From NCBI GenBank assembly GCA_043827085.1, contig JBDRPO010000005.1, positions 1-56,065 on the forward strand: DNA of 56,065 nt. Reading direction: 5' to 3'. Below, piece after piece: positions 3 through 55,719 of the stretch. The stretch's first letter is position 1; every line of letters begins with the position of its first letter. Origin of the DNA: a bacterium. GTDB lineage: Bacteria; Patescibacteriota; Microgenomatia; UBA1400; UBA12108. A program made the translations under genes and the position numbers. The notes under the pieces are model-generated. The model saw only the letters and a list, made by a program, of their open reading frames with translations. It ran no database searches and was not told the origin of the DNA.

Positions 3-2669
3 AGCGATACTAATATCAAGACCTACGATGTCGGCGCCAATGTTCCCTCCGGCGGCACCACGATTATCGATGATGATATTACTTCTCTTGGAGTTGGGTA
101 TAATCTGGAAACAGTGGGATCGGCTGCTTCCGGAGTAAAAAGTATGGGAGTAGATAACTATGCTACAACAACCTCTGGCAATTATGTGAGCAAGACCTAT
201 ACCCTCCCCAAAAACATCGGTTCCGCTGTCCTGTGGGTCTCTCCGGTTCTAGATAGCTCTGACGTCAGCAACACCATCACCGTCAAAGCCAGCAACGACG
301 CCGGAGTCAGTTATAGTACTTGTACTTTGGTCAATACCAACAGCAACCCACCGGTTCCTGAGCGCGAATATGCCTGCACCTTTCCTGCCTCGGATAATGA
401 CCTAAAAGTCAAATTTGAATTTGCCCGGGGCAGTACTAAAACCAACACCTATGTCGTCCAATACGGTATTACTTGGCTCGGCCAAACCGGCTTCAGAATC
501 GAACAAGCCGATGGCAACAACGTCAGGCTCTACAACTACACCGGTGAAACCCAAAACTTGCGACTCGACGTCATTACCGGCGGTCTGGGACGTAACGCCG
601 GCACTGTTTCTCTGGCCCCATCTGCGGCCGACGTTGATTCCCAAAGTTACACCAACTCCCTCTGGATCAACAAAACCGGCACTGGAGGCAATTTATTAAA
701 ACTTCAAACGGCAGGCACCGACGTACTCACTCTTACCACCGATGGCATCCTTGACCTATCAAGCTCGTCCACTTCTACCGCCTCCGCCATGATTAGAAAC
801 ACCTCCACGACTGCGGCAACTATCGGTCTTGCCATCAAAATGAGCGCCTCAACAATAGACAACACGACTCGATTTATTAACTTTATGGACAAAAACGGAG
901 CCGTCATAGGTAAAATCCAGGGTAATACAGCTACAACTATTTCCTACACAGGCAACGGCACCGATATGGCCGAGTATTTCACTAAAGATGATCCAAGTGC
1001 TATTTTTACTCCCGGCACGGTAATGTGTCAGGGATCAAATGGAGTTTTGGCCTGTTCTTCGTCAAACTCAACTAAAATTATTGGGATTGTTTCAGATGCA
1101 CCAGTCTTCTTGGGCGGAGTTGAAGGCCCTAACAAAGTTATTCTCGCTTTAACGGGACAAGTTCCCGTCCGTATTTCCCCCACTTCACCAGCTATTCAAC
1201 CAGGAGATTTTCTCACGATTGCTGATAATGGTCTCGCCACTAAATCTACTGGAACTGGCTATATCATCGGTAAAGCTCAAAAGTCCTGGTCACCTACTAG
1301 CGGGGAAAATAGCCTGCAAATCACCATTTCCTACATCTATGCCGATCCAGATCTCACCATCAATAATGAAGGTGATGTGACGCTCCATGGGGAGACCGTT
1401 GCAGATTACCAAGTAGTAACTCCAATTGGCATTACTTCCAAGATCGGTGCCTTCGCCAGCGCAACTATCGCCAAACTCACGGCTGGCTTAACCCGCACAG
1501 AAGAACTCCAAGTTGGCACCATCTCTCCCCTTGCCTCCGGCTCTGCCATCACCGTCAACGGCCCCATGATTATAAAAAATTCCGAACTTTCAAATAATTC
1601 AGAACCTCAAGCTCCCCTTCTCGAAGTTGACGGCGAGATCATGGCTGCCACCATCAGCGCAAGGACCGCCGTCCTCCAAAACATCCAAGCCGACACGATC
1701 ACGGCTAAAAATATCGTCGCCGATACCATTAGTGCCAATCACATCATGGGTCTCGACGCCAAGCTCGCGAGCATCTCCGGTAATCTTTCCGATTCCGAGC
1801 TTACCTCCATCACCGACCGAATCAAAGCTCGACTCGCTCTCTTGGCCGGCAACATCCCAGACGCCACCGATATCCCCGCTCCACCTGAAGCCACCTCCTC
1901 TGCTACTGGAGTCTGGGGTCCAGAATCTGACGTCTCGACAAATTCAGCCACTCTCGCCTCCGCCGACATTGACTTTGCTACCGTCAACCAGTATCTCGCC
2001 GTCATCGGCCAAGCCGTAATTACCGATCTCGACGTCACCAACTACCTCTACGCCACCAATATCAACAGCAAAACTGGCCATTTAGCGCTCGGTAACAACA
2101 CCCTCCTGATTGACGAAAACGGTCAGGTGGCAATCAATGGTGACCTCACGGTTTCCGGCAAAATCCTAGCCGATAGTGCTGAACTTAATTCTCTCTCCCT
2201 TGGCTCGCCCAGTGCCACCAGCTCTTCCGAACTCGGCAAATTGCTCGCAGTTTATGACGAATCCGGCAAACAGGTCGCCAGCATCGACGCCTCGGGGAGT
2301 GCCAACTTAGCCGCCCTCACCACCCAACTGATTACCATTGCTGCAGGTAGTGATGCCTCCGCCTCCGCCTCGGGTCTCCTTACGACTTCAGTCAAGAGCA
2401 ACGCCACCGCCGGTGAGTCTGTCCTTGTCTCTCCCAATACAGAGCTCGTCGTCGAAAGTCCCTACGTCACCAGCAACTCCCTCGTTTACTTGACCCCCAC
2501 CGCCAATACCGCAGGCAAAATCCTCTTTGTCAAAGCTAAACAGTCTTGTGAGTCTGGTTCCGAACTTCCAAATAATTCCGATCCTTGCGTGCACGCCTTC
2601 ACCGTAGGCATCGATACTCCTGCGGGTAGCGATATTCCTTTCAATTGGTGGATTATTCAACTAAAATAG
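3..2669 (+). CDS. Large Ser/Thr-rich surface or secreted protein, 5'-truncated by the window edge
   Basis: The frame is open from nt 3 with no stop, so the track start at 114 (GTG) is only the first in-frame start codon. S/T/N-rich, low-complexity composition typical of adhesin or fibre proteins. It lies upstream of the pilin genes. Confidence 0.6.
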   Translation, partial: SDTNIKTYDVGANVPSGGTTIIDDDITSLGVGYNLETVGSAASGVKSMGVDNYATTTSGNYVSKTYTLPKNIGSAVLWVSPVLDSSDVSNTITVKASNDAGVSYSTCTLVNTNSNPPVPEREYACTFPASDNDLKVKFEFARGSTKTNTYVVQYGITWLGQTGFRIEQADGNNVRLYNYTGETQNLRLDVITGGLGRNAGTVSLAPSAADVDSQSYTNSLWINKTGTGGNLLKLQTAGTDVLTLTTDGILDLSSSSTSTASAMIRNTSTTAATIGLAIKMSASTIDNTTRFINFMDKNGAVIGKIQGNTATTISYTGNGTDMAEYFTKDDPSAIFTPGTVMCQGSNGVLACSSSNSTKIIGIVSDAPVFLGGVEGPNKVILALTGQVPVRISPTSPAIQPGDFLTIADNGLATKSTGTGYIIGKAQKSWSPTSGENSLQITISYIYADPDLTINNEGDVTLHGETVADYQVVTPIGITSKIGAFASATIAKLTAGLTRTEELQVGTISPLASGSAITVNGPMIIKNSELSNNSEPQAPLLEVDGEIMAATISARTAVLQNIQADTITAKNIVADTISANHIMGLDAKLASISGNLSDSELTSITDRIKARLALLAGNIPDATDIPAPPEATSSATGVWGPESDVSTNSATLASADIDFATVNQYLAVIGQAVITDLDVTNYLYATNINSKTGHLALGNNTLLIDENGQVAINGDLTVSGKILADSAELNSLSLGSPSATSSSELGKLLAVYDESGKQVASIDASGSANLAALTTQLITIAAGSDASASASGLLTTSVKSNATAGESVLVSPNTELVVESPYVTSNSLVYLTPTANTAGKILFVKAKQSCESGSELPNNSDPCVHAFTVGIDTPAGSDIPFNWWIIQLK

Positions 2670-7890: not shown

Positions 7891-7966
7891 GGGCCGTTAG
7901 CTCACCTGGTAGAGCGCTACTATGGCATAGTAGAGGTAGTCGGTTCGAGTCCGATACGGTCCACCA
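7891..7966 (+). tRNA. tRNA-Ala (anticodon GGC), CCA encoded
   Basis: Cloverleaf folded by hand: acceptor GGGCCGT/ACGGTCC with the G3:U70 Ala identity pair, D stem GCTC/GAGC, anticodon stem CTACT/AGTAG with loop ATGGCAT, T arm GTCGG-TTCGAGT-CCGAT, discriminator A, CCA. Confidence 0.9.
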
Positions 7967-32929: not shown

Positions 32930-33018
32930 AACCGTATTCTACCTCACTTATCCTACTACCAGTTATATTAGAAGCACCAAAACAAGCACCACCTATTTGT
33001 GTGATATTATGAATCAAT

Positions 33019-33822
33019 ATGCCAGATGATAACGATAGTGTTAGTGAAATTTTTCAGGCGATCGAATTCTTTAGAAAATTCAATTCTAATAACCAATTAA
33101 AAGCAAACGAGATCAAAATATCGCATCCAATAATCATAAGCTACACGGCAAAACCTGACATACTTATCTTCGCACCCAACGATCAATTCGCTACCGAAAT
33201 TCTTTCAAAACAAAATATTTCATTAATCGGAAGTAAATTGAATTACAATGTATATAACACAAAAGGCAAAATACCCCCCGATTCAACTTGGCTAACTGGT
33301 TGGAGATACGGACCTCTACCAAATTTTCTACATCACATTTTCGCTCCCACCCACAACCAATCTAAATATATCACGGGTCCCACGTCAGAAGTATTTCTCT
33401 CCAACCAAAATCGCAAATTATTCGGCTTAGAAAACCCATACAAATATATGGACGGTTTCTACGCCACTATTATTCACGAACTAGGCCACGCATCCATTGC
33501 CGAAAATACAAAATCACTTGACACCAAGTTTGTTGAGCAATTCTTCTCGCACAATACCTCGAAATTATTTTATCCAGAAAAATGGTTTCTTCCTGAGTTA
33601 TTCGCATTTTGTACTGAATACTCATTTTCCATATCAAATCTACCCAAACACGCCAAAAAACTAGAAAAATTACAAAGCAAAATACTTAAACTCATGCAAA
33701 ACAAAACGATTCCTTGGTATACCACGCACACTTATGCCATAACAACAGGAATTGCCTTGATAACAAAACATCCACACACCTGGCCAAACCGACTTATCGA
33801 CCGAGTTGCTGTATCTATTTAA
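33019..33822 (+). CDS. Hypothetical HExxH protein (possible Zn metallopeptidase), AT-rich orphan
   Basis: IIHELGHASI motif. The composition looks more AT-rich than the flanks. Confidence 0.5.
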   Translation: MPDDNDSVSEIFQAIEFFRKFNSNNQLKANEIKISHPIIISYTAKPDILIFAPNDQFATEILSKQNISLIGSKLNYNVYNTKGKIPPDSTWLTGWRYGPLPNFLHHIFAPTHNQSKYITGPTSEVFLSNQNRKLFGLENPYKYMDGFYATIIHELGHASIAENTKSLDTKFVEQFFSHNTSKLFYPEKWFLPELFAFCTEYSFSISNLPKHAKKLEKLQSKILKLMQNKTIPWYTTHTYAITTGIALITKHPHTWPNRLIDRVAVSI

Positions 33823-33871
33823 CAAAAACAAATCTCTAATCTCCACCGGGAGGCATCCCAGGAGGACAACC

Positions 33872-34315
33872 CTATGCCATTGGAGAGCATCCATCCGGCA
33901 TACAAGGATTACCACCCGCACCTGGCACACACAAAACATCTGGCTGACAAGCTGCAGTAGGTATACAACCTGACATCTCTGGAATACATAGTGCAAACGG
34001 ATTACAACCCTGCTCTGGCATACATGGTTGTAACGGCTGACAAAATGGCGCACACTCACCAGCCTGAACACTATTTCTTTTAGCAGTTTCGGTTTGAACA
34101 ATCAATTCGGGATTTTCACTTACTTTAATACCACTACTCATTAACATACTAGCTACATTCTCATCAGGAGAAATCGTTCCCAACAGAATATTCTGTGCTT
34201 CCCGATTTATTGAAAAAACATATCCTCGCGCCCAATCATATACAGCACTACGTTTATAACCTTCTACTAATGCTTGATCATCACTCAATCTATAAATCAA
34301 ATGCTCTTTACCCAT
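33872..34315 (-). CDS. Orphan protein: PqqD/RRE-like N-terminal module (tentative) plus a C-terminal (Cys-x-Pro) x10 repeat tail
   Basis: In the tail GECAPFCQPLQPCMPEQGCNPFALCIPEMSGCIPTAACQPDVLCVPGAGGNPCMPDGCSPMA every Cys is followed by x-Pro. The frame continues GCPPGMPPGGD after the TAG. Confidence 0.6.
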   Translation of the reverse strand: MGKEHLIYRLSDDQALVEGYKRSAVYDWARGYVFSINREAQNILLGTISPDENVASMLMSSGIKVSENPELIVQTETAKRNSVQAGECAPFCQPLQPCMPEQGCNPFALCIPEMSGCIPTAACQPDVLCVPGAGGNPCMPDGCSPMA

Positions 34316-34438
34316 AAGTTTTCCTCAGAGTAATTATAGGCCAAGAAGTCAAGCTAATTACACAAATGCTTGCCAATTCCCGCAATTAGTGCGTTAATAA
34401 TAGGTAGATTTCAGTTAGTAGTTATCCGATCTCAGAAT

Positions 34439-34834
34439 ATGGAACAATTTATACAATCAAGTCTCCCAATTGCCAAGTTAAAAGTATGGCAAGAATCAAT
34501 TAATTTAGTAAAACAAATATATTTATTGACACGAAAGCTACCTAAAGAAGAATTATATTGCCTAACACCTCAACTCAGAAGAGCCGTTATTTCAATTCCT
34601 TCAAATTTAGCTGAAGGCCAACAAAAACATTCACAAAAAGATTTTCTGAGATATATTGATATCGCTCTTGGATCTACAGCAGAGATTCGTACACAACTAA
34701 TAGTAGCTAGGGAAATATACAATGTTAATATCGATCTAGAAGAAAACTTGGCTGAAGCTGTATCTAAAATGCTACATGGTTTAAGAAAAACCATATTATC
34801 AAACATTAATTCAGAGATCTCAGCAGAGATCTGA
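34439..34834 (+). CDS. Four-helix-bundle protein (23S rRNA intervening-sequence protein / Avd-like family)
   Basis: KVWQESINLVKQIY.LTRKLPKEE...QLRRAVISIPSNLAEG......DF..YI.IALGS..E. Start set at MEQF (track start is 34370). Confidence 0.75.
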   Translation: MEQFIQSSLPIAKLKVWQESINLVKQIYLLTRKLPKEELYCLTPQLRRAVISIPSNLAEGQQKHSQKDFLRYIDIALGSTAEIRTQLIVAREIYNVNIDLEENLAEAVSKMLHGLRKTILSNINSEISAEI

Positions 34835-34855: not shown

Positions 34856-36037
34856 ATGTACTCTCCCAAATACACGATCACCAATAGCATCCTCAAAAAC
34901 GTCGGCACCATCGACTCTGCCCGCGAGGTGATCTCCCACGCCCCTCTCGTTCCCGCCTGGGAACGTCGTTTCCAAACCGAAGCTCGCCTCAAAATCATCC
35001 ACCACGGTACTCACCTCGAAGGCAATGACCTAAATCTCGAAGAGGTTGAAGAAATCCTTTCTCCCTCCCCAGGGTCTGACCTTAAAGGACGAGCCCAACC
35101 CGCAGACTCAAAGGCTGGAAGGTCAGACCCTATAGGTACTCCCCCCGCCCGCGATCGCGACATCCGCGAAGTCATCAACTACCGCGCCGTCATGGACTAT
35201 CTCGATACTCTTGTGCCCAAGGGGTCTGACCTTGAAGGAAGTGCCCAACCCGAACGCAGTGAGGGAAGGTCAGACCCCAAAGGATATATCGTTTTATCTC
35301 CCCACCTCCTCTCCGAAGTTCACAAGTTGACTGTCGCGGGTTTACTCCCCGATGACGAAGCCGGCCACTACCGCAGCGTCAAAGTGGTCATTAGAAACAC
35401 CGAGACTCACGAGATCAGCTTCCGCCCTCCTCCTCCTCTCGACGTACCATTTTTAATTGATGATCTCTTCGCTTGGCTAGAGTGCGACGAAGGCAAGGCC
35501 GTCCACCCACTCCTGCGCGCCGGCATTCTCCACTACGAGCTAGTCCGTATCCACCCTTTCACCGACGGCAACGGCCGTACTGCCCGTGCCATAGCTCTCC
35601 TGCTCCTATTTCTTGAAGGTTACCAAGTCAAAAAATTCTTCGCCCTCGAAGAATACTACGATTCTCACCCCGAAGAATACTATGCAGCCCTCCAATCGGT
35701 TTCAAGCTCGGGTGAGCTCACCAGCTGGCTCGAGTACTTCACGCTCGGTATCGCCATCGAATTCAACCGCATCAAAACCTTAGTCCAAAAGCTCTCACTC
35801 GACCTCCATCTCAAAACTACCCTGGGTGGACGCCAAATCACCCTCTCAACCCGCCAAATCAAGCTCGTCGAGTACATTGAACGCCACGGACAAATCAGTA
35901 TGGGGAGTGTCCGCGATCTCTTACCTGACGTCTCCGAGGACACGATCCTCCGTGATCTCCGTGATCTGGTCAGCAAAAACTTACTCACCAAAAAAGGCAG
36001 TACCAAAGGCACCAAGTATTATCTAAAATCAAATTAA
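34856..36037 (+). CDS. Fic-family protein (AMPylase-type) carrying two in-frame palindromic insertions
   Basis: HPFTDGNGRTARA Fic motif and a C-terminal wHTH-like region. Two paralogous inserts: GSDLKGRAQPADSKAGRSDP and GSDLEGSAQPERSEGRSDP. Confidence 0.85.
   Translation: MYSPKYTITNSILKNVGTIDSAREVISHAPLVPAWERRFQTEARLKIIHHGTHLEGNDLNLEEVEEILSPSPGSDLKGRAQPADSKAGRSDPIGTPPARDRDIREVINYRAVMDYLDTLVPKGSDLEGSAQPERSEGRSDPKGYIVLSPHLLSEVHKLTVAGLLPDDEAGHYRSVKVVIRNTETHEISFRPPPPLDVPFLIDDLFAWLECDEGKAVHPLLRAGILHYELVRIHPFTDGNGRTARAIALLLLFLEGYQVKKFFALEEYYDSHPEEYYAALQSVSSSGELTSWLEYFTLGIAIEFNRIKTLVQKLSLDLHLKTTLGGRQITLSTRQIKLVEYIERHGQISMGSVRDLLPDVSEDTILRDLRDLVSKNLLTKKGSTKGTKYYLKSN
35072..35130 (+). repeat. In-frame palindromic element 1 (arms GGGTCTGACCTT / AAGGTCAGACCC, 35-nt interior)
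   Basis: Perfect 12-bp inverted arms. The interior shares GCCCAACCCG with element 2. Confidence 0.85.
35221..35278 (+). repeat. In-frame palindromic element 2 (arms GGGGTCTGACCTT / AAGGTCAGACCCC)
   Basis: Perfect 13-bp inverted arms. Homologous to element 1. Confidence 0.85.
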
Positions 36038-36284: not shown

Positions 36285-36312
36285 AGATTCCAGATACCAG
36301 ATTCTAGATTCC
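36285..36312 (-). repeat. Heptamer array g, the only inverted copy: AGATTCC AGATACC AGATTCT AGATTCC on the plus strand
   Basis: Read directly. It overlaps the 3' end of the four-helix-bundle pseudogene. Confidence 0.9.
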
Positions 36313-36669
36313 AGTTTTTGACGCTTTAATCAAACCAAACATCATCTTTTGGATTTCAATCACTCTTGACAACAAAGCATCTATCACAGTTTGATCCTGC
36401 AAATATCCCACATCTCGCACAATGTAAATTTGATTTCTCACTTCCGTCAAAGAACCCATGGCCATATGGAAAAATTGTATTTTTTCTTTGGAACTCTGTC
36501 TACCAAATCCTTCAGCAATATTGCTTGTTATTTATACGCTGGCTCGTCTCAGTTGATCAGCTAGACCATATCTCTCAAAACTTGGAAACTTTGCAACTAA
36601 TTTATAAATTTCAACCACTAAAACATGAGTCTTTTGCCAAACAAACAAATCAGTAAAATCTTTTATCAC
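36304..36669 (-). pseudogene. Four-helix-bundle (23S rRNA IVS / Avd-like) gene with one in-frame TAA (codon 46, nt 36532-36534)
   Basis: Hand translation: (GTG)IKDFTDLFVWQKTHVLVVEIYKLVAKFPSFERYGLADQLRRASV*ITSNIAEGFGRQSSKEKIQFFHMAMGSLTEVRNQIYIVRDVGYL...KTGI*. Absent from the ORF track because of the stop. Confidence 0.75.
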
Positions 36670-36726: not shown

Positions 36727-38544
36727 TCAGTTGCCGAATGTCCCCGGCGCCACCTCTTGCCACTGCATCGCAAAACTCTTGAGCCTATTTGGCATATTCG
36801 TGATCAAGTCTGGCCGATAAACAAAGCTATCCCCCGCCAAAGTCTTGTTCGTCCTTCCCAAGTCTCTAGCCATATTAATATTTCCCCACACCACGAGCGA
36901 ACCCTGGAACTCCAGGGGGTCATCATCCAGGATCAATAGTACATACTTTGATTCAGTGCGATAATTTCCACTCATGTCGTACAATCCCTGTACCTTTGTC
37001 ACATCCGAGGCAACTGTCACGTCTCCCTTGACGAAAAACGCCAGGAATCCACCCTGCTCCACTTCTATATTCTCGGCAATCCGCAAGTCCCCGTTGACAA
37101 AGATCACGTAGCTCTCGCCCGCCGAGACCAACCACGGCGAGTCCACCGTCGAGTCTCCCGCCTGATAATAAAAATCCTTCCCTCCGCTGGGTTTGTTACT
37201 CAAATTATTAGTGACCCAATCGTCTTCTTGGGCCGGCAACACTCCCATATTCGCCGCAAAGTAATTGTAGTCCATTCTCTTCCCCCTATACGTTGTCGTC
37301 GCCATCCAGCCCGGGTCCGACACATACCCCCTGCCCAAATCCGCACTTCCCTGTGCCGTAAACAAGGCTCCCTCCGTCCCCCCCACTGCGGGTAGTAGTA
37401 GCCGCATCGACGAGTCCGGCAGCTCTGAGTTTACCGCTCCCCCTCCGTACACCCCGGCTCCCGTCACTTGCCACCAAGGGTCAGGTAAATCATTCAAGAA
37501 AAAGTTGTTGTTATTTGACCCCGCCGCCACGCTGGCCTTATTGGGGCAAGTTGCAGCGTTGCAGTCCGAGCAAATATACTCGTCTGGTTTATTCAGTAGT
37601 TGCAGCGACACGCTCGCCGCTGTCGAGCTCGCGATCACATACATCCCGGCATAATCCCCACTGCTTTGTACCGAACCCGCACTCGTTATCCCTCCCTCGT
37701 TGTATCCCACGGCCAAGTCATCGGTCTGCGTCCACGGACTCGCCGTCGAGCAAGTCCCGGTAGGGTCATAATATACATGACCAGTAATATATGAATACCG
37801 CCGGAAATTGGCCGCCGGACAAGTTGTTATTAACCCATACGGCCATTCTTCCGCCGTCACATTGACTCCGATCAGCCCTACCCCTGGATGACTCGCCAGG
37901 TTAATCTTGGCATAGAATTTACTTCCATCCCCGTATCGTATCCCTGGATAGCGGTAATAATTGCTGGCGCACCCTCCCGGCGCCCCATAACTGCACACCT
38001 CAAAAACAACCGTCGGCCAGTGCCACCCCAGTTTGTCCGAACCCGAATACACTCCACTCGCAAACAGGTAAAAGTACCCGCTCGTCAACGACGTCTGTGT
38101 CTGCTGGGGGAAAGCACTGGTACATCTTGGGGGCGGACACGGCGTGAGACACCCAGAGTCCACATCTTCCTTTCCCCTACTCGAAGTATAACTCCCGCAC
38201 GGACACCTTGCCGATCTCCCCTCTCCCTCATCCCCAGTACTCGGGGGCGTACTCGGCACAATCGCATAATACCTCCCATTTGGGGCCTGATAAAACCCCG
38301 CATACACCCCTTCCGAATACTCAAACCCCGTCTGCCCAGGACTAAAGATCTCCTCTCCACTAACATGTCCTACGCTAGTTAAATATAAACCGTTGCTCAA
38401 ATCACCCGGGATCCCCACCAGGCTGCGCCCATCCGAGGTACTATACAGCTCAAAAATATCCTGTGCCTGTGCTCTCCCACCCACGCCCAGCACCAGCCCC
38501 CAGAGTACTACCGCTACTGCCACCAACCTGCCCCATCTCTTCAT
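36727..38544 (-). CDS. Secreted 605-aa protein, hypothetical
   Basis: Signal peptide MKRWGRLVAVAVVLWGLVLGVGGRAQA. Gly/Tyr/Ser-rich, many Cys. The composition looks more GC-rich than the neighbours. Confidence 0.6.
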   Translation of the reverse strand: MKRWGRLVAVAVVLWGLVLGVGGRAQAQDIFELYSTSDGRSLVGIPGDLSNGLYLTSVGHVSGEEIFSPGQTGFEYSEGVYAGFYQAPNGRYYAIVPSTPPSTGDEGEGRSARCPCGSYTSSRGKEDVDSGCLTPCPPPRCTSAFPQQTQTSLTSGYFYLFASGVYSGSDKLGWHWPTVVFEVCSYGAPGGCASNYYRYPGIRYGDGSKFYAKINLASHPGVGLIGVNVTAEEWPYGLITTCPAANFRRYSYITGHVYYDPTGTCSTASPWTQTDDLAVGYNEGGITSAGSVQSSGDYAGMYVIASSTAASVSLQLLNKPDEYICSDCNAATCPNKASVAAGSNNNNFFLNDLPDPWWQVTGAGVYGGGAVNSELPDSSMRLLLPAVGGTEGALFTAQGSADLGRGYVSDPGWMATTTYRGKRMDYNYFAANMGVLPAQEDDWVTNNLSNKPSGGKDFYYQAGDSTVDSPWLVSAGESYVIFVNGDLRIAENIEVEQGGFLAFFVKGDVTVASDVTKVQGLYDMSGNYRTESKYVLLILDDDPLEFQGSLVVWGNINMARDLGRTNKTLAGDSFVYRPDLITNMPNRLKSFAMQWQEVAPGTFGN

Positions 38545-38588: not shown

Positions 38589-41500
38589 CTATTTTGTCTT
38601 TACCATATTAAACGCAACGTTATCGCCACACCCCACCCCCACTGGCACCTGGTCCAACATGGTCTGGATCGCCCGCACTCTCATCGGCATCGTCTCATTT
38701 TCTCCCAACGGGCTATCTATAAATTTAGCTATCTGCACCCGCGCATCCATCAGCGTCATCTCACTCATCTGACCTTTTTCGTCTGTGAATTTTACTACTT
38801 CTAATCGTAAACCAAAAGATAAACCTGAATTAAAAGGGTCACCACTCGACATTCCATTGCTGAGCTTCGCCACCGCCGTCACTGTCCTGTTTGGACCAAA
38901 ACATGTCTGCATCTCTGGGAAGGTGTTAGGCACGCCATTCCCAAAAGCAAAGTCTCCATCTGTAAACCCAAGCCAATACAAATTCATCCTCTCCCCATTC
39001 TCGTCCAGTGTATCCAAGTGGGCTACGCTCGGTATAAACAACAGCTTATCCAATGGCACTCCCCACGTAATTTCCTGCACCGGCAACATGTTGGGGAAAA
39101 ATACGTTTAGGTCGCTCTGATCCAGCATAAACGCCATATATTCAATGGGTATCTCTGTTGCCTTGTCCGCTTTAGCATAGTTTCCGTCCTTATCCGCGAT
39201 ATTAAAAACAATTACCACAATTTTTTGACCACCAGCCGTTAGGATGACAATATCCCTTGCCCACAATTTTCCCGTCCATGGTCTTTGTTCAAAAATCTTC
39301 TTGGCCTCATCCAGGATGGTTTTAACTGTCATCCCTTCCTTGGCTTTCACTTCGGGTATGTCTGCTGCGTTTTCCGGCAATGGTCCCATTCTTATCTCCC
39401 CCGCGGCGGGAACTGCCTCTTTAATAATCTGCCCTGTTCTCAAATCCAAAAATGCCATTGGCATACCATCCTTATCCAGCTGTATCACTGAATAAACCGT
39501 CTCTTGTTTGTCATGCACCAAGTGCTGCTTCACCGCTCCCGGCTGCATCTCCACCCACTTCATCTGAAATCCATCCAAATCAACCACCCCCAAAGGCATA
39601 AGTGACAAGAAAGGCAAGCCATTCGCGTCAGCCGCGTATCCAACCCTTCCTCCATTTTTCTCTTGTGGTACAACTGACCAGGATACACTAGTCATATCAT
39701 ACGCAAAATCATAATTATTATAAAATGCTTTTTTAGCTTCTTCATAAGTCTGAGCATTCCCCAGTAATCCCTCTCTCCACAACTTAGATATCCACCAACC
39801 CTCCATGTCCGCTACATCTCCTTGGCTCATACTATCAATCGCTGCACGCAGTTGCTCCGTACTCCCCCCGCTTGCTGATAAATCAAAATCAGTCATACTC
39901 CCAGGCAACGTTATACTAACTTCATTAGTTGGAACAACCTCTGCTATAGGGGGAGGTACTGCCGTCGAATTCGACTCAACCACTTGCGGAGTAGGTATCA
40001 CTATCGCAGTCGGCGACGCTTCACTTGCAACTGCTATTGGTACCACAGCAGTTTCATTCCCACTGCAAGCAGTCATCGACGCCATAAACAATGCCAGTGC
40101 AAGTATAGCTATTTTTTGTTTTTTTCCTTCCCCCGTAACCAACCCCAATATTGGCAAACTCATTGCCAATTCCACAGCTCCTGCCGGATTAACTGCAAAT
40201 TCCCCACCCAAACGGGCGAGTTCTGCAATTGCCTGCTGTTTCCACTCCTCACTACCATCTTTAAAACTATCTGCCAACTCCGTCATCGTCGCCTTCACAT
40301 TATCCGGCAACTGATCAAAATATTCGTTAATTTCTGCCTCTACCTGTTCCCCACTCTCTGCTCCTGCATGTATTGCCTTTGTACTCAACAACGCCTCATT
40401 CGCATTCCACGCCTTCATCGCATTTACATCCATGCTCTGATCTTTTTTATGCAGGGCGTCAGTTACATCCACCATAACGTCCGACGCCTCCGCCACAATT
40501 GCGTCAACTTGGCCAATTTGCTCAACGACATATGCCGCTCCCACCAAAGACGCCATCCCCAACACGACAGGAGCTACTGCCCCCAAAGCTTTCTTTGCTT
40601 GACTCGCAACGAGGACAACCGACTCAACTTCTCCTTTCTCTCCTACCCTCACATTTATATCGCTCGTGTCCATCTTGTATCCCACTCCCCTCAAATTTTG
40701 CCACGCTCTAACTATCTCCGCCTTAACCCATGGCTTTGTGCCCAACTCCAATCTTTCACTTTTTCCGATTCTAGTTAGTATACTTCGCGCAGAATCAGCT
40801 ACCAATCTGGCCATTACAGCAGTGCCATTTTCTCCCAGCGCCGACGGTACAAGCACCGTACAACCCCGAATCATTGCCTCTTTAGTTGGAACAACCCGCT
40901 CTAACCTGACCTCACCACTAGGACTTTTTATTTGCCAAACCTCGGAATTATCCAAAACAGCGCCTGCTACCAGGCGCGCCATCTCCGACGTGGGGCTTGT
41001 CCCCCTTGCAGCTCTCCTTCCCACTCCCCCAGCAGCCGCAACCTCCCTCACGATCGCCTCGGTCGTTTGGTCACCTACGCAATTATGCTCTATATACTCA
41101 ACTAATCCTATGTCATTTTTAATCCCCATCATCCCCAATATCGCCTTAGCCGTATTCTCCTTACTTTGTGGCAACTCGGTAATTTTCACATCATAATCAC
41201 CCTTTGGCCCTTTTACGGGTTTTATCCCTCTCCTAGATACTGCCTGCCACTTCATTACACTCTTTCCCACATCAGTTAAAAACAAAATCTTCTCTCTCTT
41301 CAATTGTTCCTCCGAGTTTACCCCCATTTCCTTCGCCAACTTCTTCACCTGGAGACCAAACCTGCCCCTTTGCTCAACTACACTACTCAACGCCTCAGGC
41401 ACACAGGCTATACTATGCTCATCAGCCAAAGTCTTAGCGACTGCCACTGCTGCCAAAGCAGCTTTCTCTGTTTGTAAACCGTGCACTACGTCGCTTGCAG

Positions 41501-41822
41501 CCTCACCACTTTTTACAACAACGCGTTTACCTTCCGAATCGACATAATTTTTACCCACTGCCGTCTCTCTCAGTTCTTCTGGAGTCATGAGTCCAAACCA
41601 ATGCCCAAGCTGATTCACGTCAGATTCAGGTTCACCCATATCTCCATGCCACAAACTCATTCCCCTCATAGCTTGCAACCATTGCCCAGAATCCCCAATC
41701 ATATTCAACTCCGACACCTTTCTTGCCTCCAGCCCATCCCCCGCAGAAGCAACTGAACGCTTTCGTCCAGCTAGACTCCTCGCTTCTAGATTAGTCACCT
41801 CAAATCGCCTCATAATAGTCAT
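38589..41822 (-). CDS. 1077-aa membrane protein, hypothetical: soluble N-terminal half, internal TM/lipobox-like segment, large C-terminal extracytoplasmic half
   Basis: Uninterrupted ORF. Hydrophobic segments near VAPVVLGMASLVGAAYVV and KKQKIAILALALFMASMTAC (Cys586, nt 40065-40067). No recognised catalytic motif. Confidence 0.6.
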   Translation of the reverse strand: MTIMRRFEVTNLEARSLAGRKRSVASAGDGLEARKVSELNMIGDSGQWLQAMRGMSLWHGDMGEPESDVNQLGHWFGLMTPEELRETAVGKNYVDSEGKRVVVKSGEAASDVVHGLQTEKAALAAVAVAKTLADEHSIACVPEALSSVVEQRGRFGLQVKKLAKEMGVNSEEQLKREKILFLTDVGKSVMKWQAVSRRGIKPVKGPKGDYDVKITELPQSKENTAKAILGMMGIKNDIGLVEYIEHNCVGDQTTEAIVREVAAAGGVGRRAARGTSPTSEMARLVAGAVLDNSEVWQIKSPSGEVRLERVVPTKEAMIRGCTVLVPSALGENGTAVMARLVADSARSILTRIGKSERLELGTKPWVKAEIVRAWQNLRGVGYKMDTSDINVRVGEKGEVESVVLVASQAKKALGAVAPVVLGMASLVGAAYVVEQIGQVDAIVAEASDVMVDVTDALHKKDQSMDVNAMKAWNANEALLSTKAIHAGAESGEQVEAEINEYFDQLPDNVKATMTELADSFKDGSEEWKQQAIAELARLGGEFAVNPAGAVELAMSLPILGLVTGEGKKQKIAILALALFMASMTACSGNETAVVPIAVASEASPTAIVIPTPQVVESNSTAVPPPIAEVVPTNEVSITLPGSMTDFDLSASGGSTEQLRAAIDSMSQGDVADMEGWWISKLWREGLLGNAQTYEEAKKAFYNNYDFAYDMTSVSWSVVPQEKNGGRVGYAADANGLPFLSLMPLGVVDLDGFQMKWVEMQPGAVKQHLVHDKQETVYSVIQLDKDGMPMAFLDLRTGQIIKEAVPAAGEIRMGPLPENAADIPEVKAKEGMTVKTILDEAKKIFEQRPWTGKLWARDIVILTAGGQKIVVIVFNIADKDGNYAKADKATEIPIEYMAFMLDQSDLNVFFPNMLPVQEITWGVPLDKLLFIPSVAHLDTLDENGERMNLYWLGFTDGDFAFGNGVPNTFPEMQTCFGPNRTVTAVAKLSNGMSSGDPFNSGLSFGLRLEVVKFTDEKGQMSEMTLMDARVQIAKFIDSPLGENETMPMRVRAIQTMLDQVPVGVGCGDNVAFNMVKTK

Positions 41823-52091: not shown

Positions 52092-52514
52092 TTATTTTTT
52101 TACCAAAAAATCCAAATGTTTTTTTATTTCTTCAATCTTTTTGTCCTGCTCATCCAATCGCTCGAGGATCCGTCTCATGTGAAAGTCCTCCTGGTACCGT
52201 AACAGTTCCACCGACACAAACGCCATCACCGCCCCAAACAAAACTACTCCAAACACCTCTAGTAGTACCGCGATTACCTTCCCCATCCCCGTGACCGGCA
52301 CCATATCCCCGTACCCTACCCCCGTCACCGTCGTAATCGCAAACCATAGTCCATCTCCCTCATTTTTGATCCTTGCTCCCGCTACCGAACTCTCGATCGG
52401 TGCAATCACAAGTCCCAACAGGAGTACTGCCGCAAACAAAACAAACAAAATCTTCCGAAATCTCCCGCTATGCGAGAGTTTTAAAGCTACCTGTCTCACC
52501 TGACTATTATTCAT
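52092..52514 (-). CDS. Small two-TM potassium channel (KcsA-like pore)
   Basis: Selectivity filter TTVTGVGYGD flanked by two TM helices. C-terminal coiled-coil tail. Confidence 0.8.
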   Translation of the reverse strand: MNNSQVRQVALKLSHSGRFRKILFVLFAAVLLLGLVIAPIESSVAGARIKNEGDGLWFAITTVTGVGYGDMVPVTGMGKVIAVLLEVFGVVLFGAVMAFVSVELLRYQEDFHMRRILERLDEQDKKIEEIKKHLDFLVKK

Positions 52515-55500
52515 ACTTCACTTTATATTCTTTCTTCTTTACTACTTCATCTTTACTCACTTTTACGATTTCTTCAAACTGTTCACGCTCCAGTGATTCA
52601 GTCTCCATCAGAGCCACCACTACCCTATCCATCGTCTTTCGCTCATTCTTTAAAATCTCCATGGTAGTAGCTTCACACGCATTCACGATTCGCTTCACTT
52701 GGCCGTCAATCTCGGCGCGTTTAGAATCAGATACATCTGTCGGCTCGAGGTAGTTCCTCCCCCACTCCGACAATCCCTCCGTAGGCCCAAAATCAATCGG
52801 CCCCAAGGGCGACATCCCATAATCAATCACCATCGCGCGAGCAATTTTAGTCACGCGATCAATGTCAGAAGAAGCGCCAGCTGTCAAATCGTTATAAACC
52901 AACTGCTCTGCTGCCCTTCCTCCGAGGAGGGTACAAATTTCTTCAAGTAGTTGTGTCCTGGTCTCCTGGTACTTGTCGGCTGCGGGCGGAATCATGGTGA
53001 ACCCAAGTGCACGTCCGCGAGAAATTATCGAAATGCGATGCACCGGATCAGTATGGGATAGAAAATGGGTCACCACCGCATGTCCCGCCTCGTGGTAAGC
53101 CGTCATTTTCCGATCATCCTCACTCTGGATCCGCTTCTTCGACGGGCCCATCTTCACCTTTGTCGCTGCCTCCTCAATATCATTAAAAGTGATCTCTTTC
53201 CGGTTCTCCCGAGCGATCAAAATTGCCGCTTCGTTGAGCATATTTTCTAGGTCAGCTCCGGTAAAACCAACCGTCCGTTTCGCGACCGACGTCCAATCAA
53301 TATCTTTCACAAATGGTTTACCCTTCGCGTGGATGGCAAGCGTCGCCTTCCTCCCCTCAATGTCTGGCATATCAAGCGTAACTCGCCGATCAAACCGACC
53401 TGGTCGAACTAGTGCTTGATCCAAAACGTCTGGTCTATTGGTCGCCGCCAGTACCACCACGTTTTCTTTGACAGTAAACCCATCCATCTCGACAAGAATT
53501 TGGTTTAGGGTCTGATCCCGCTCATCGTGCCCTCCCATCGAGCCACCACCTCGTGTTCTGCCAATTGCATCAATCTCGTCAATAAAAATAATCGCTGGGC
53601 TGGATTTTTTGGCCGTCTCAAACAGGTCGCGCACGCGGGACGCACCGACCCCCACAAGCATCTCCATAAACTCCGACCCCGCCATCGAGAAAAAGGGTAC
53701 TCCCGCCTCCCCGGCGACCGCGCGCGCCATGAGCGTATTGTGGTTTATCAATCCATTACCCACAAACGAATGAGTCTTATCCACCGTAAAGTCGTATACC
53801 ACATCCTTCCTTTGATCTATGCTCTTGACCAGAGAAAAGAATAATTTCGCCTGTAATAATCTCTCACAATGTACTACAAAATCAGAAGAATATTGATTTT
53901 GTTTACAAAAATCAACAAATTTGCCCATCATAGCTCTTGACACTCGATCTCTTTCTCTAATCTTAAAAATAGCTTTTGCCCAAAATTCATTACTCATCTT
54001 TCGTTTAGACAACTCCCCCCACTCCCGAGCCAACAACTTTCCCATCCCATAAAATATATCCACATTGGTGTTACTTCCTTTCGAAATCATGATCTCAACT
54101 CTTTTCCTTAACTCATCTTGTTTTCTTGACAGTCCAAAGCCAACCATGTCCAAAAATATTGGCAAAGCATCGCCCGTTACCGCCAAACGATAAACTGCTC
54201 TGGGGTGTTTTTCATCTTCAGCTTTAACACCACAACTTGTCACCACCCCCAAATTCAGTAGCATTAACTGCACTTGTCTCATCATTTGTTTACTGACAGT
54301 TGCGTATTCAACCGTTGATCTATTTTTCTGCATATGCGCATCCGCATCAAACAATCCTTTCAAAAAAGCCACTTGGATTTCTCGACTTCCCTGCAAAATA
54401 CTTTCAGGTACTTCCTTGTCATAAGACAATAAATATGACATCCCTGCATGATATAGATCCTTCTTCACGTCCCACGAATTGACAATGTAGTCATAATCGC
54501 CATGTTTATGAACCTTAACACCAGGATATCGCTTTGAAATATAATTCTTCCAATACTCTACAGTTTCCAGGTCAGCACTAGTCAGTCCCACTCGATTAGA
54601 GACAGACATATTCCCGTCCCCAGTCAACAATCCAATTAAATATGCCGTTTCCGAGTCTACATCTTTTCGCCTCCCAAAAAGTTCCTGGCCAAATGACACA
54701 GCCACAACATCACCGACCATTACATTCTCTAATCTTTTGTATTCCAATTTACCGTTATTCATCACCACAATTGGGTGCTCAAATGTCCCCTCAATTTCAT
54801 ATCCCTGCTCCAGCGTCACTCTCTTTGTCTTTTGCTCTCCCAAGTTATACCAGTGGGTTGCTTTCCCGATCATCATTTTTGTAGTTTCAATCTCCAAACT
54901 AGCCAACCCCACCCCATATGCCACATTTTTATTATCTACTTGGTAATATTTTGGAATATCTTTTATCTGTATTAATCCTTTTTGCGTCAAGATATAAGTA
55001 TCTCCCACCACACATTTTCCGACTCCTGCCGGCCCAACAAGAAGCACTCCCTTTGGAGTCCTAGCTCCCACCTTGGCGTATTTATCTGGATTTTTTAAGA
55101 AATCAACCACCTCTTCAAGCTCTTGCTTGGCCTCGTCCACCCCAGCCACGTCTGCAAACTTCACGTTTTGCTTCCCCTTCGCAAACAACTTAGCTTTTGA
55201 CTTTCCCATCCCAAACATCCCGCCTCCCATCATTCCACCCTGTCCCGAGCCTCTCATCTGTCGCACGATCATCACAAAAAATAGTGCCATCAGTAAAAAC
55301 GAGAGCACGTTTAGAATCCCCCCAACCTTGTCCATAAAACTTCCATTTCTGACTTCAAAGTTCACACTCGCAGGATCAATCTGATATTGGGTCAAAAGCT
55401 CGGTAAAGCTCTGCCCAGTCTCTTTGGTACTAAACTTCATGGTGGAGTCGCCATAGTCCAGAACCACTTGGTCCCCGATCACCTCCACACTTTTTACCTT

Positions 55501-55719
55501 TTGGTTTTTGATATCCTCCATCGCTTGGGTCAAGGTCAGGGTCACATCTTGCGCCATCCCCCCAAACCAACTCATCACGGCCGGTACAAAGAGAAATAGG
55601 ATCAGGCTCCACACAATCATTTTCTTGAGGTCAAAGCGAAAACTCCACACCTTCACTGGCTTTGCTCCTAGCGGCAATTTCACTTCTGGAACTTTCTTTT
55701 GTTCTTTAGTCTTCGCCAT
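52507..55719 (-). CDS. ftsH: ATP-dependent zinc metalloprotease FtsH, interrupted by an intein in the Walker A motif
   Basis: GPAGVGK[intein][16 protein letters not shown]. Walker [33 protein letters not shown] and the zinc site HEAGHAV. 644 aa without the intein. Confidence 0.95.
53737..55014 (-). mobile_element. Intein (426 aa) with a LAGLIDADG homing-endonuclease domain
   Basis: Cys1 (TGT 55014-55012), block B TFEH, LAGLIDADG motifs [11 protein letters not shown] and [13 protein letters not shown]-terminal HN (53742-53737), and +1 Thr, the conserved T of GKT. Confidence 0.9.

Follow-up and report, generated by a model that had tools for sequence, protein, structure and literature searches.

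Is a short protein that combines a possible peptide-recognition module with a cysteine-proline repeat in one chain a new kind of modified-peptide precursor, or does it have another origin? The question is raised by an open reading frame (ORF) at positions 33872..34315 (minus strand) of the window, by which we mean the whole stretch of 56,065 nt that was analysed. The ORF encodes 147 residues from an ATG start, and its sequence is the one quoted in the earlier note on this DNA. As described there, ten cysteines lie within the final 60 residues (positions 88, 92, 98, 104, 110, 117, 123, 129, 138 and 143; spacing 4-9), and each of the ten is followed by x-Pro. When the 66-residue tail was shuffled 1,000,000 times with its composition preserved, the best result was eight C-x-P motifs, seen twice; ten never occurred. 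It was also confirmed that the same frame continues past the TAG stop (33872-33874) with GCPPGMPPGGD, which contains an eleventh C-x-P (CPP), up to a second TAG at 33836-33838. Pfam and NCBIfam gave no match for the 147-residue protein, a phmmer search of the PDB returned none even at E ≤ 10, and a simple sigma-70 scan detected no canonical -35/-10 pair upstream of the ORF on its strand.

Origin of the two halves

A word-indexed search of 5.8 billion clusters found two relatives only, P0001 (91 residues) and P0002 (89 residues), both matching just the Cys-rich half. P0003 and P0004 came in addition from an exhaustive HMMER search, which covered 1.84 billion representatives. P0003 is a radical-SAM/SPASM protein of 417 residues, the first 82 of which are 67% identical to residues 1-82 of the ORF; in a tblastn comparison and alignment, its residues 4-81 showed 69% amino acid identity to the remnant in the window. 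P0004 is a more distant peptide of 85 residues with 11 cysteines, all in C-x-P. Hence, ORF residues 81-147 correspond to free-standing peptides of 85-91 residues, and residues 1-82 correspond to the N-terminus of a maturase. The resemblance of the N-terminal part to radical-SAM/SPASM maturases, which had been proposed earlier, is literal, with 67-69% identity over residues 1-81, and the term "orphan" no longer applies, as the ORF has homologues and is part of a widespread cassette.

In the loci L003, L001 and L004, the two parts are encoded by separate, adjoining genes: a radical-SAM/SPASM maturase of 417-431 residues is followed by a precursor of 85-91 residues. In L001, the maturase and peptide genes overlap by ATGA. 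L001 and L003 also have a gene for an HExxH protein of 264-266 residues, which converges on the peptide gene and is placed as in the window. Since the word-index and HMMER searches assign the two halves to two different proteins, and these proteins are encoded by separate adjoining genes in the relatives, the halves were once two genes. The Cys-rich part is the core of a modified-peptide (RiPP-type) precursor, as had been suspected; in the relatives, its gene stands directly 3' of the maturase gene. Among about 15 billion proteins, there is no second one with the ORF's fusion of module and core. As the relic of a maturase and a precursor, the ORF is to be annotated as a fused pseudogene and not as a new domain architecture.

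The N-terminal half was modeled with AF2 (residues 1-81), which gave a pLDDT of 87.7 and four strands plus two helices. The four best Foldseek matches in the PDB were leader-bound RRE domains (TbiB1, lasso B1; 5v1v, 6jx3, 5v1u), with a weak E-value of 0.055 and a TM-score of 0.42; the RRE of PbtF and CteB (5why) followed further down the same list. With Pfam PqqD (E ≤ 1 or 0.1), neither the ORF nor the N-terminal modules of six family members gave a match. Of the earlier proposal of a PqqD/RRE-like N-terminus, the assignment to the N-terminal module of a radical-SAM/SPASM maturase stands; an RRE fold is weakly supported.

An alignment of the window with L003, its closest relative, located the event that joined both halves. 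Window positions 34353..34073 correspond to L003 344..626 and window positions 34075..33836 to L003 1697..1936, so that the window is short by exactly 1,073 nt. The two blocks overlap at one AAT codon, which joins Asn 81 of the maturase in frame to Asn 11 of the precursor; L003 contains an imperfect ACTAA..AAT repeat at both breakpoints. The comparison with L001 gave the same picture. The features of the locus are:

34316..34353, minus strand: upstream stretch of what was the maturase gene; its aligned counterpart, L003 344-383, immediately precedes the intact gene
34333-34338, minus strand: TATAAT box in this upstream region
34322-34326, minus strand: GAGGA, 6 nt before the ATG
34073..34315, minus strand: N-terminal remnant of the radical-SAM/SPASM maturase, codons 1-81 (RRE-like module); aligns to L003 384-626
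34073..34075, minus strand: deletion junction, AAT codon; maturase N81 = precursor N11, 3-nt microhomology
33875..34072, minus strand: precursor remnant, consisting of the last 7 leader residues (SVQAGE..) and the core with 10 C-x-P; 86-94% amino acid identity to the L003, P0002 and P0001 precursors
33872..33874, minus strand: TAG nonsense codon in place of TGG (Trp); the P0001, P0002 and L003 peptides read ...SPMAWGC...
33836..33871, minus strand: former C-terminal tail GCPPGMPPGGD and original stop, now untranslated; collinear with the 3' ends of the precursor genes in L003 and L001, stop codon included
33019..33822, plus strand: convergent HExxH partner, intact, 267 residues, HELGH at 153-157; putative zincin-type peptidase and third member of the cassette

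Lost with the deleted stretch were the radical-SAM barrel including its CX3CX2C motif, the SPASM domain, the spacer between the two genes and codons 1-10 of the precursor. An inspection of the ORF shows the consequences: the match to the maturase ends at residue 81, and the radical-SAM motif (CNMKCLHC in P0003), which begins at about residue 92, is missing. The seven-Cys pattern of SPASM is absent together with its domain, the leader motif is absent together with leader residues 1-10, and what adjoins the precursor in the window is an enzyme stump of 81 codons only. In agreement with the earlier statement that the window lacks a maturase gene, tblastn with three maturases of the family found nothing beyond residues 4-81. 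We have high confidence that the ORF arose by this deletion, as judged from the alignments. What had been read as a leader-recognition fold and a core purposely built into one chain is a product of the loss of 1,073 nt. It had also been considered that the ORF might be absent or frame-disrupted in close relatives; the reverse is the case, the relatives being intact and the window copy disrupted.

Alternatively, the junction could be an artefact of assembly or belong to a minority allele: the organism would then have an intact cassette, and the contig would have collapsed across a short repeat. The window looks metagenome-derived and has singleton proteins, the breakpoints share short microhomology only, and the 147-residue product is not recorded as a called gene. 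However, a 3-nt match would not normally lead an assembler to collapse 1.07 kb of unique sequence. Moreover, a second, independent lesion in the same gene (TGG to TAG) and a broken gene nearby fit real decay, which leaves an artefact as a very improbable explanation.

This second lesion is the nonsense change. Where the window has TAG, P0001, P0002 and L003 have TGG, and their tail and stop position beyond it agree with those of the window; this bears out the previous suggestion that the array was longer until recently. TAG is an ordinary stop codon in the window, where it ends 15 of the 39 long ORFs; given the TGG of the relatives, a simple G-to-A nonsense change is the economical reading. 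Recoding of or read-through at the TAG was ruled out on the same grounds and by the use of TAA in the nearby broken gene. A further candidate was rejected as well: "ELIVQTE" (residues 70-76), considered as a stand-in for the leader motif, is an ordinary maturase linker (ELVVRPE in L003, ERIVNPE in L001).

Combining these findings, we consider it highly probable that the ORF is the relic of a three-gene RiPP-type cassette, damaged by the 1,073-nt deletion and by a separate nonsense change. The ancestral order would have been radical-SAM/SPASM maturase, C-x-P-rich precursor and convergent HExxH protein. A deletion between two short A-rich microhomologies would have joined maturase codon 81 to precursor codon 11, and a separate G-to-A change would have turned the Trp codon into TAG. 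The start codon and the ribosome-binding site of the maturase gene are retained in the fused ORF, which may still be made.

The parent cassette

The block common to L003 and the window coincides exactly with the cassette (32996-34353 in the window); the flanking genes differ between the window, L001 and L003. The intact cassette comprises about 2.4 kb in L003 and in L001, where it occupies L001:2470-4886. Its GC content is 38.9% vs 47.5% in the remaining window, which agrees with the AT-rich island noted earlier, and 37.9% vs 48.0% in L001; it is AT-rich relative to its host in two genomes out of the three. A search around the window cassette found neither flanking repeats, direct or inverted, nor recognisable mobile-element ends. 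The position of an AT-rich cassette between genes that are unrelated from genome to genome suggests horizontal movement.

The surroundings in the window have peculiarities of their own. A Fic/DOC ORF (34856-36037, plus strand) contains two GC-rich palindromic elements in frame (35073-35129 and 35223-35276). The copies of 54-57 nt (GGTCTGACCTT...AAGGTCAGACC) encode repeated GSDL(K/E)G..AQP..GRSDP segments and give the impression of a small repeat element that has spread into coding sequence. At 52507-55719 (minus strand), a homologue of FtsH (AAA + Peptidase_M41) carries a LAGLIDADG homing-endonuclease intein in the ATPase region and is 1070 residues long, compared with 644 for the intein-less FtsH in L001. 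Three large ORFs had no or only sub-threshold Pfam matches: 38589-41822 (minus strand, 1077 residues), 114-2669 (plus strand, 851 residues) and 36727-38544 (minus strand, 605 residues); the last of these has a hydrophobic, signal-peptide-like N-terminus and a weak match to DUF7305. Rfam assigned one tRNA (Ala-GGC, 7891-7966) and nothing else in the window. The GC skew of positions 1-56065 is strongly and uniformly negative, from -0.13 to -0.51 in every 1-kb bin, and the minus strand encodes 27 of the 39 long ORFs.

In metagenomes of Patescibacteria/Microgenomates, the parent cassette is common, and it was met again in contigs of Roizmanbacteria and other CPR bacteria. At E ≤ 1e-20, 761 homologues of the L003 maturase were obtained; those with names stem from Roizmanbacteria, Daviesbacteria, Woesebacteria and the "Patescibacteria group". 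Three contexts taken from the top of this list consist of a radical-SAM/SPASM gene, a peptide of about 94 residues and a convergent HExxH protein of 287-294 residues. Probing with the HExxH alignment identified four loci in species-representative genomes (two Roizmanbacteria MAGs and two "uncultured Gammaproteobacteria" MAGs) and 31 loci in the metagenome collection. Wherever the flank suffices, a C-x-P peptide adjoins the HExxH partner, and the precursor stands beside the enzyme in L001, L003, L004, L006-L013 and many of L015-L045.

Among 22 distinct precursors or tails, 161 of 172 cysteines (94%) are in C-x-P with an unconstrained middle residue; note that this figure is conditional on a peptide filter that required at least three C-x-P. 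All 19 free-standing precursors contain the leader motif [EDT]-[IMV]-x-[LE]-V-[TS] (approximately E-[IM]-x-L-V-[TS]), which is absent from the ORF. In a precursor subfamily encoded beside the HExxH gene (L022, L028, L033), C-x-P alternates with C-R-I and similar motifs (e.g. ...CVPSRCIPYCRITTCQPYCGIIPTCQPVCRIRGPN), and four of the 7-8 cysteines are in C-x-P.

Three loci deviate from the three-gene arrangement. In L025, L041 and L042, a radical-SAM protein of about 320 residues stands beside the HExxH gene; it starts just before CX3CX2C, is devoid of the RRE-like module, and combines a shortened C-terminal Cys (SPASM) region with a fused tail of eight cysteines, all in C-x-P. A separate peptide gene was not found at these loci. 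The natural maturase-substrate fusions, whose tail is exemplified by VCPPNCSPPCPPDCYPSCSPCTPDCGPGQCGPDAP, are:

L025:3738-4688, minus strand
L041:3585-4553, minus strand
L042:3678-4646, minus strand

Their existence implies that the fusion of enzyme and core occurs naturally in this family and that tethering is not abnormal in itself.

These contexts also bear on the idea, raised in the earlier note as a second option, that the tail is a thiolate-rich binder, i.e. an unmodified metal-binding protein. Ten cysteines within 60 residues would suit such a role; however, the homologous cores are always beside, or fused to, a radical-SAM enzyme, and the cassette is free of metal-homeostasis genes. 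A pattern with Pro at +2 after each Cys is not known as a metallothionein-type signature. No evidence points toward a metal binder, and we regard this reading as hardly credible.

The third member of the cassette is intact in the window. Its product shares 73% amino acid identity with the partner in L003 and 52% with that in L001, and a homologue adjoins the precursor in every complete locus examined. The family alignment contains two invariant blocks, ATIxHExxH and ELxAFxxEY; H153, E154, H157, E193 and E200, the last two located in ELxAFxxEY, are invariant across six divergent homologues. HExxH and a downstream third zinc ligand are present, at the level of motifs only. Pfam gave sub-threshold matches only (MPTase-PolyVal 0.046, SprT-like 0.088), neither Pfam nor NCBIfam has a model for the protein, a PDB profile search with the alignment returned nothing meaningful, and an AF2 model from three sequences was unusable (pLDDT 39). 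Based on the motifs, the protein may act as a peptidase in the cassette, an assignment that we make with low to moderate confidence.

Age of the lesions and fate of the remnant

In order to assess the age of the damage, substitutions on the window branch were counted with L003 as sister and L001 as outgroup:

Core peptide: 11 synonymous, 3 non-synonymous (one of which is the nonsense change), pN/pS 0.08
N-terminal module: 6 synonymous, 11 non-synonymous, pN/pS 0.47
HExxH gene: 29 synonymous, 32 non-synonymous, pN/pS 0.30

There is no excess of non-synonymous change in the core and no sign of long neutral drift on this branch. The low value of the core suggests that the damage is recent. The lesions may be young, or selection may still act on the remnant; with such small counts, the two readings cannot be told apart.

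Several observations speak against a relic: the fusion is in frame, for which the chance was one in three, the start signals are common with L003, and the HExxH partner is intact. In addition, P0004 naturally ends almost where the TAG of the window sits; truncation by the TAG alone therefore need not inactivate the peptide. One could accordingly assume that the fused ORF is still functional, its core being modified by a maturase encoded elsewhere and the RRE-like module aiding recruitment or solubility. The strong purifying selection on the core and the leaderless enzyme-core fusions of the family would be compatible with this assumption, as would precursors of the P0004 type, which do without the tail lost to the TAG. 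On the other hand, the 56-kb window is without a maturase, the deletion eliminated the leader motif that all of the 19 free precursors possess, the architecture is the only one of its kind in the proteins searched, and a recent deletion explains the low pN/pS equally well. We judge a functional fused ORF to be unlikely. On the preferred relic reading, as the ORF is without enzyme and without leader, the pathway at the window locus is probably dead, and we regard the locus as non-functional with moderate to high confidence.

Decay was also observed elsewhere in the family. In L035, the precursor is frameshifted, so that the leader (MALKETEIVEVT) is read in another frame than the C-x-P core (L035:3440-3660, minus strand). 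The L004 maturase contains an in-frame stop inside the RRE-like region (L004:1-330, plus strand; ...HTNG*HYHTTTGNVYSINREA...). Both genes are decayed or error-containing. Within the window, a second 23S-rRNA-IVP/four-helix-bundle gene (36304-36669, minus strand), 2.4 kb from the ORF, is broken by an in-frame TAA at 36532-36534 (...RRASV*ITSNIAEG...); its paralogue at 34370-34834 (plus strand) is intact. The repeated decay of the cassette in the window, L035 and L004, its AT-rich composition and the differing flanks suggest that it is an accessory trait, frequently acquired and lost again.

Enzyme affinities and comparison with known systems

The intact maturases match Pfam Radical_SAM and SPASM, the latter with E-values of 1e-7 to 8e-10 in P0003, P0007 and P0010. 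A PDB search with a profile of 32 maturases gave the sactisynthase SkfB as the best match (8e-21) over the radical-SAM core and the auxiliary-cluster domain, as well as CteB (8e-10) and SuiB (8e-7). No anSME chain was found at E ≤ 0.01 in this search, nor was an anSME model among the best 25 NCBIfam matches. The best NCBIfam scores of the maturase are far below the cut-offs (StsB 72.5 vs 625, SkfB 48 vs 300, AlbA 48 vs 850); ranthipeptide and SCIFF models of NCBIfam match neither maturase nor precursor, and the precursor is without a curated Pfam or NCBIfam model.

What might such an enzyme do to its substrate? Where the cassette is intact, the leader motif would be bound by the RRE-like module at the N-terminus of the maturase. 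The SkfB-like radical-SAM enzyme would then modify every C-x-P cysteine, thioether cross-linking being the most likely reaction, and trimming of the leader would fall to the HExxH protein. A different chemistry is conceivable if the parent enzyme resembles anSME, a founding SPASM enzyme, and converts each of these cysteines to formylglycine. The recognition motif of anSME/FGE, C/S-x-P/A-x-R, resembles C-x-P, the middle residue is unconstrained as in sulfatases, and in the open-access literature searched, "Cys-X-Pro" occurs only in sulfatase papers. However, the residues at +4 of the window motifs are C, Q, Q, A, M, A, V, A, G and A, with Arg at none, and the clade profile matches SkfB and CteB but no anSME at E ≤ 0.01. 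These findings favour cross-linking over formylglycine, which we consider improbable; thioether chemistry on the C-x-P cysteines, as deduced from these similarities, is proposed with low to moderate confidence.

A more far-reaching proposal concerns the family as a whole. The parent cassette may represent an undescribed, CPR/Microgenomates-specific RiPP class, in which an SkfB-like radical-SAM/SPASM enzyme acts on every C-x-P cysteine, an HExxH protein performs processing, leader/RRE-dependent and leaderless forms coexist, and the window holds a freshly inactivated relic. We advance this tentatively, as a possibility of considerable weight; a smaller one is that the fused RRE and core of the window still undergo processing in trans. 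Full-text searches of open-access literature, including a compendium of 15,000 rSAM-RiPP enzymes, yielded no description of the cassette. If the proposal is true, the chemistry might depend on the Pro at +2, with an unusual thioether topology or multiple formylglycines as a result. The intact cassette is a compact, apparently uncatalogued three-gene system in bacteria with very small genomes. Its strict substrate rule, the conserved leader motif and the leaderless fusions make it tractable for heterologous expression, and it could reveal how an SkfB-like enzyme acts on a Cys that has Pro at +2.

The window copy itself is an ordinary relic, and the family behind it is a variant of the radical-SAM/SPASM RiPP theme. 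With SkfB/SkfA and the sactipeptides, it shares a Cys-containing precursor beside a radical-SAM enzyme that has an N-terminal, presumably substrate-binding module. Identity is low, however; SkfA has a single thioether, whereas 6-11 C-x-P cysteines and no obvious conserved acceptor are found here, and the processing and export genes of skf contrast with the HExxH partner of the C-x-P cassette. The ranthipeptides (CteB/thermocellin, PapB/freyrasin, SCIFF) likewise combine a radical-SAM/SPASM enzyme that has an N-terminal RRE (here an RRE-like module) with a Cys-rich repeat core. Their pattern is C-x3-D, of which freyrasin has six repeats, or that of SCIFF; in contrast, the C-x-P precursors are longer (about 70-100 residues) and very Pro-rich, and their family was found only in contigs of the CPR/Microgenomates type. 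anSME is also a SPASM-family radical-SAM enzyme whose target Cys is marked by a Pro at +2, but its substrate is a sulfatase with Arg at +4, whereas a small repeat peptide without this Arg is present here and specific similarity is lacking.

The comparison with PqqD-type RREs is based on the model of residues 1-81, for which the best four PDB matches, and a location equal to that of RREs in radical-SAM/SPASM maturases, would fit a related module. Canonical RREs have three strands and three helices, whereas the window model has four and two and its scores are weak; moreover, the module in the window is severed from its enzyme. Finally, borosin OphMA-type proteins are enzyme-core fusions, and the likeness to their substrate in cis belongs to the fusions of L025, L041 and L042. 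These link an enzyme to a core; the fusion in the window is the converse, a recognition module joined to a core after the catalytic domain has gone.
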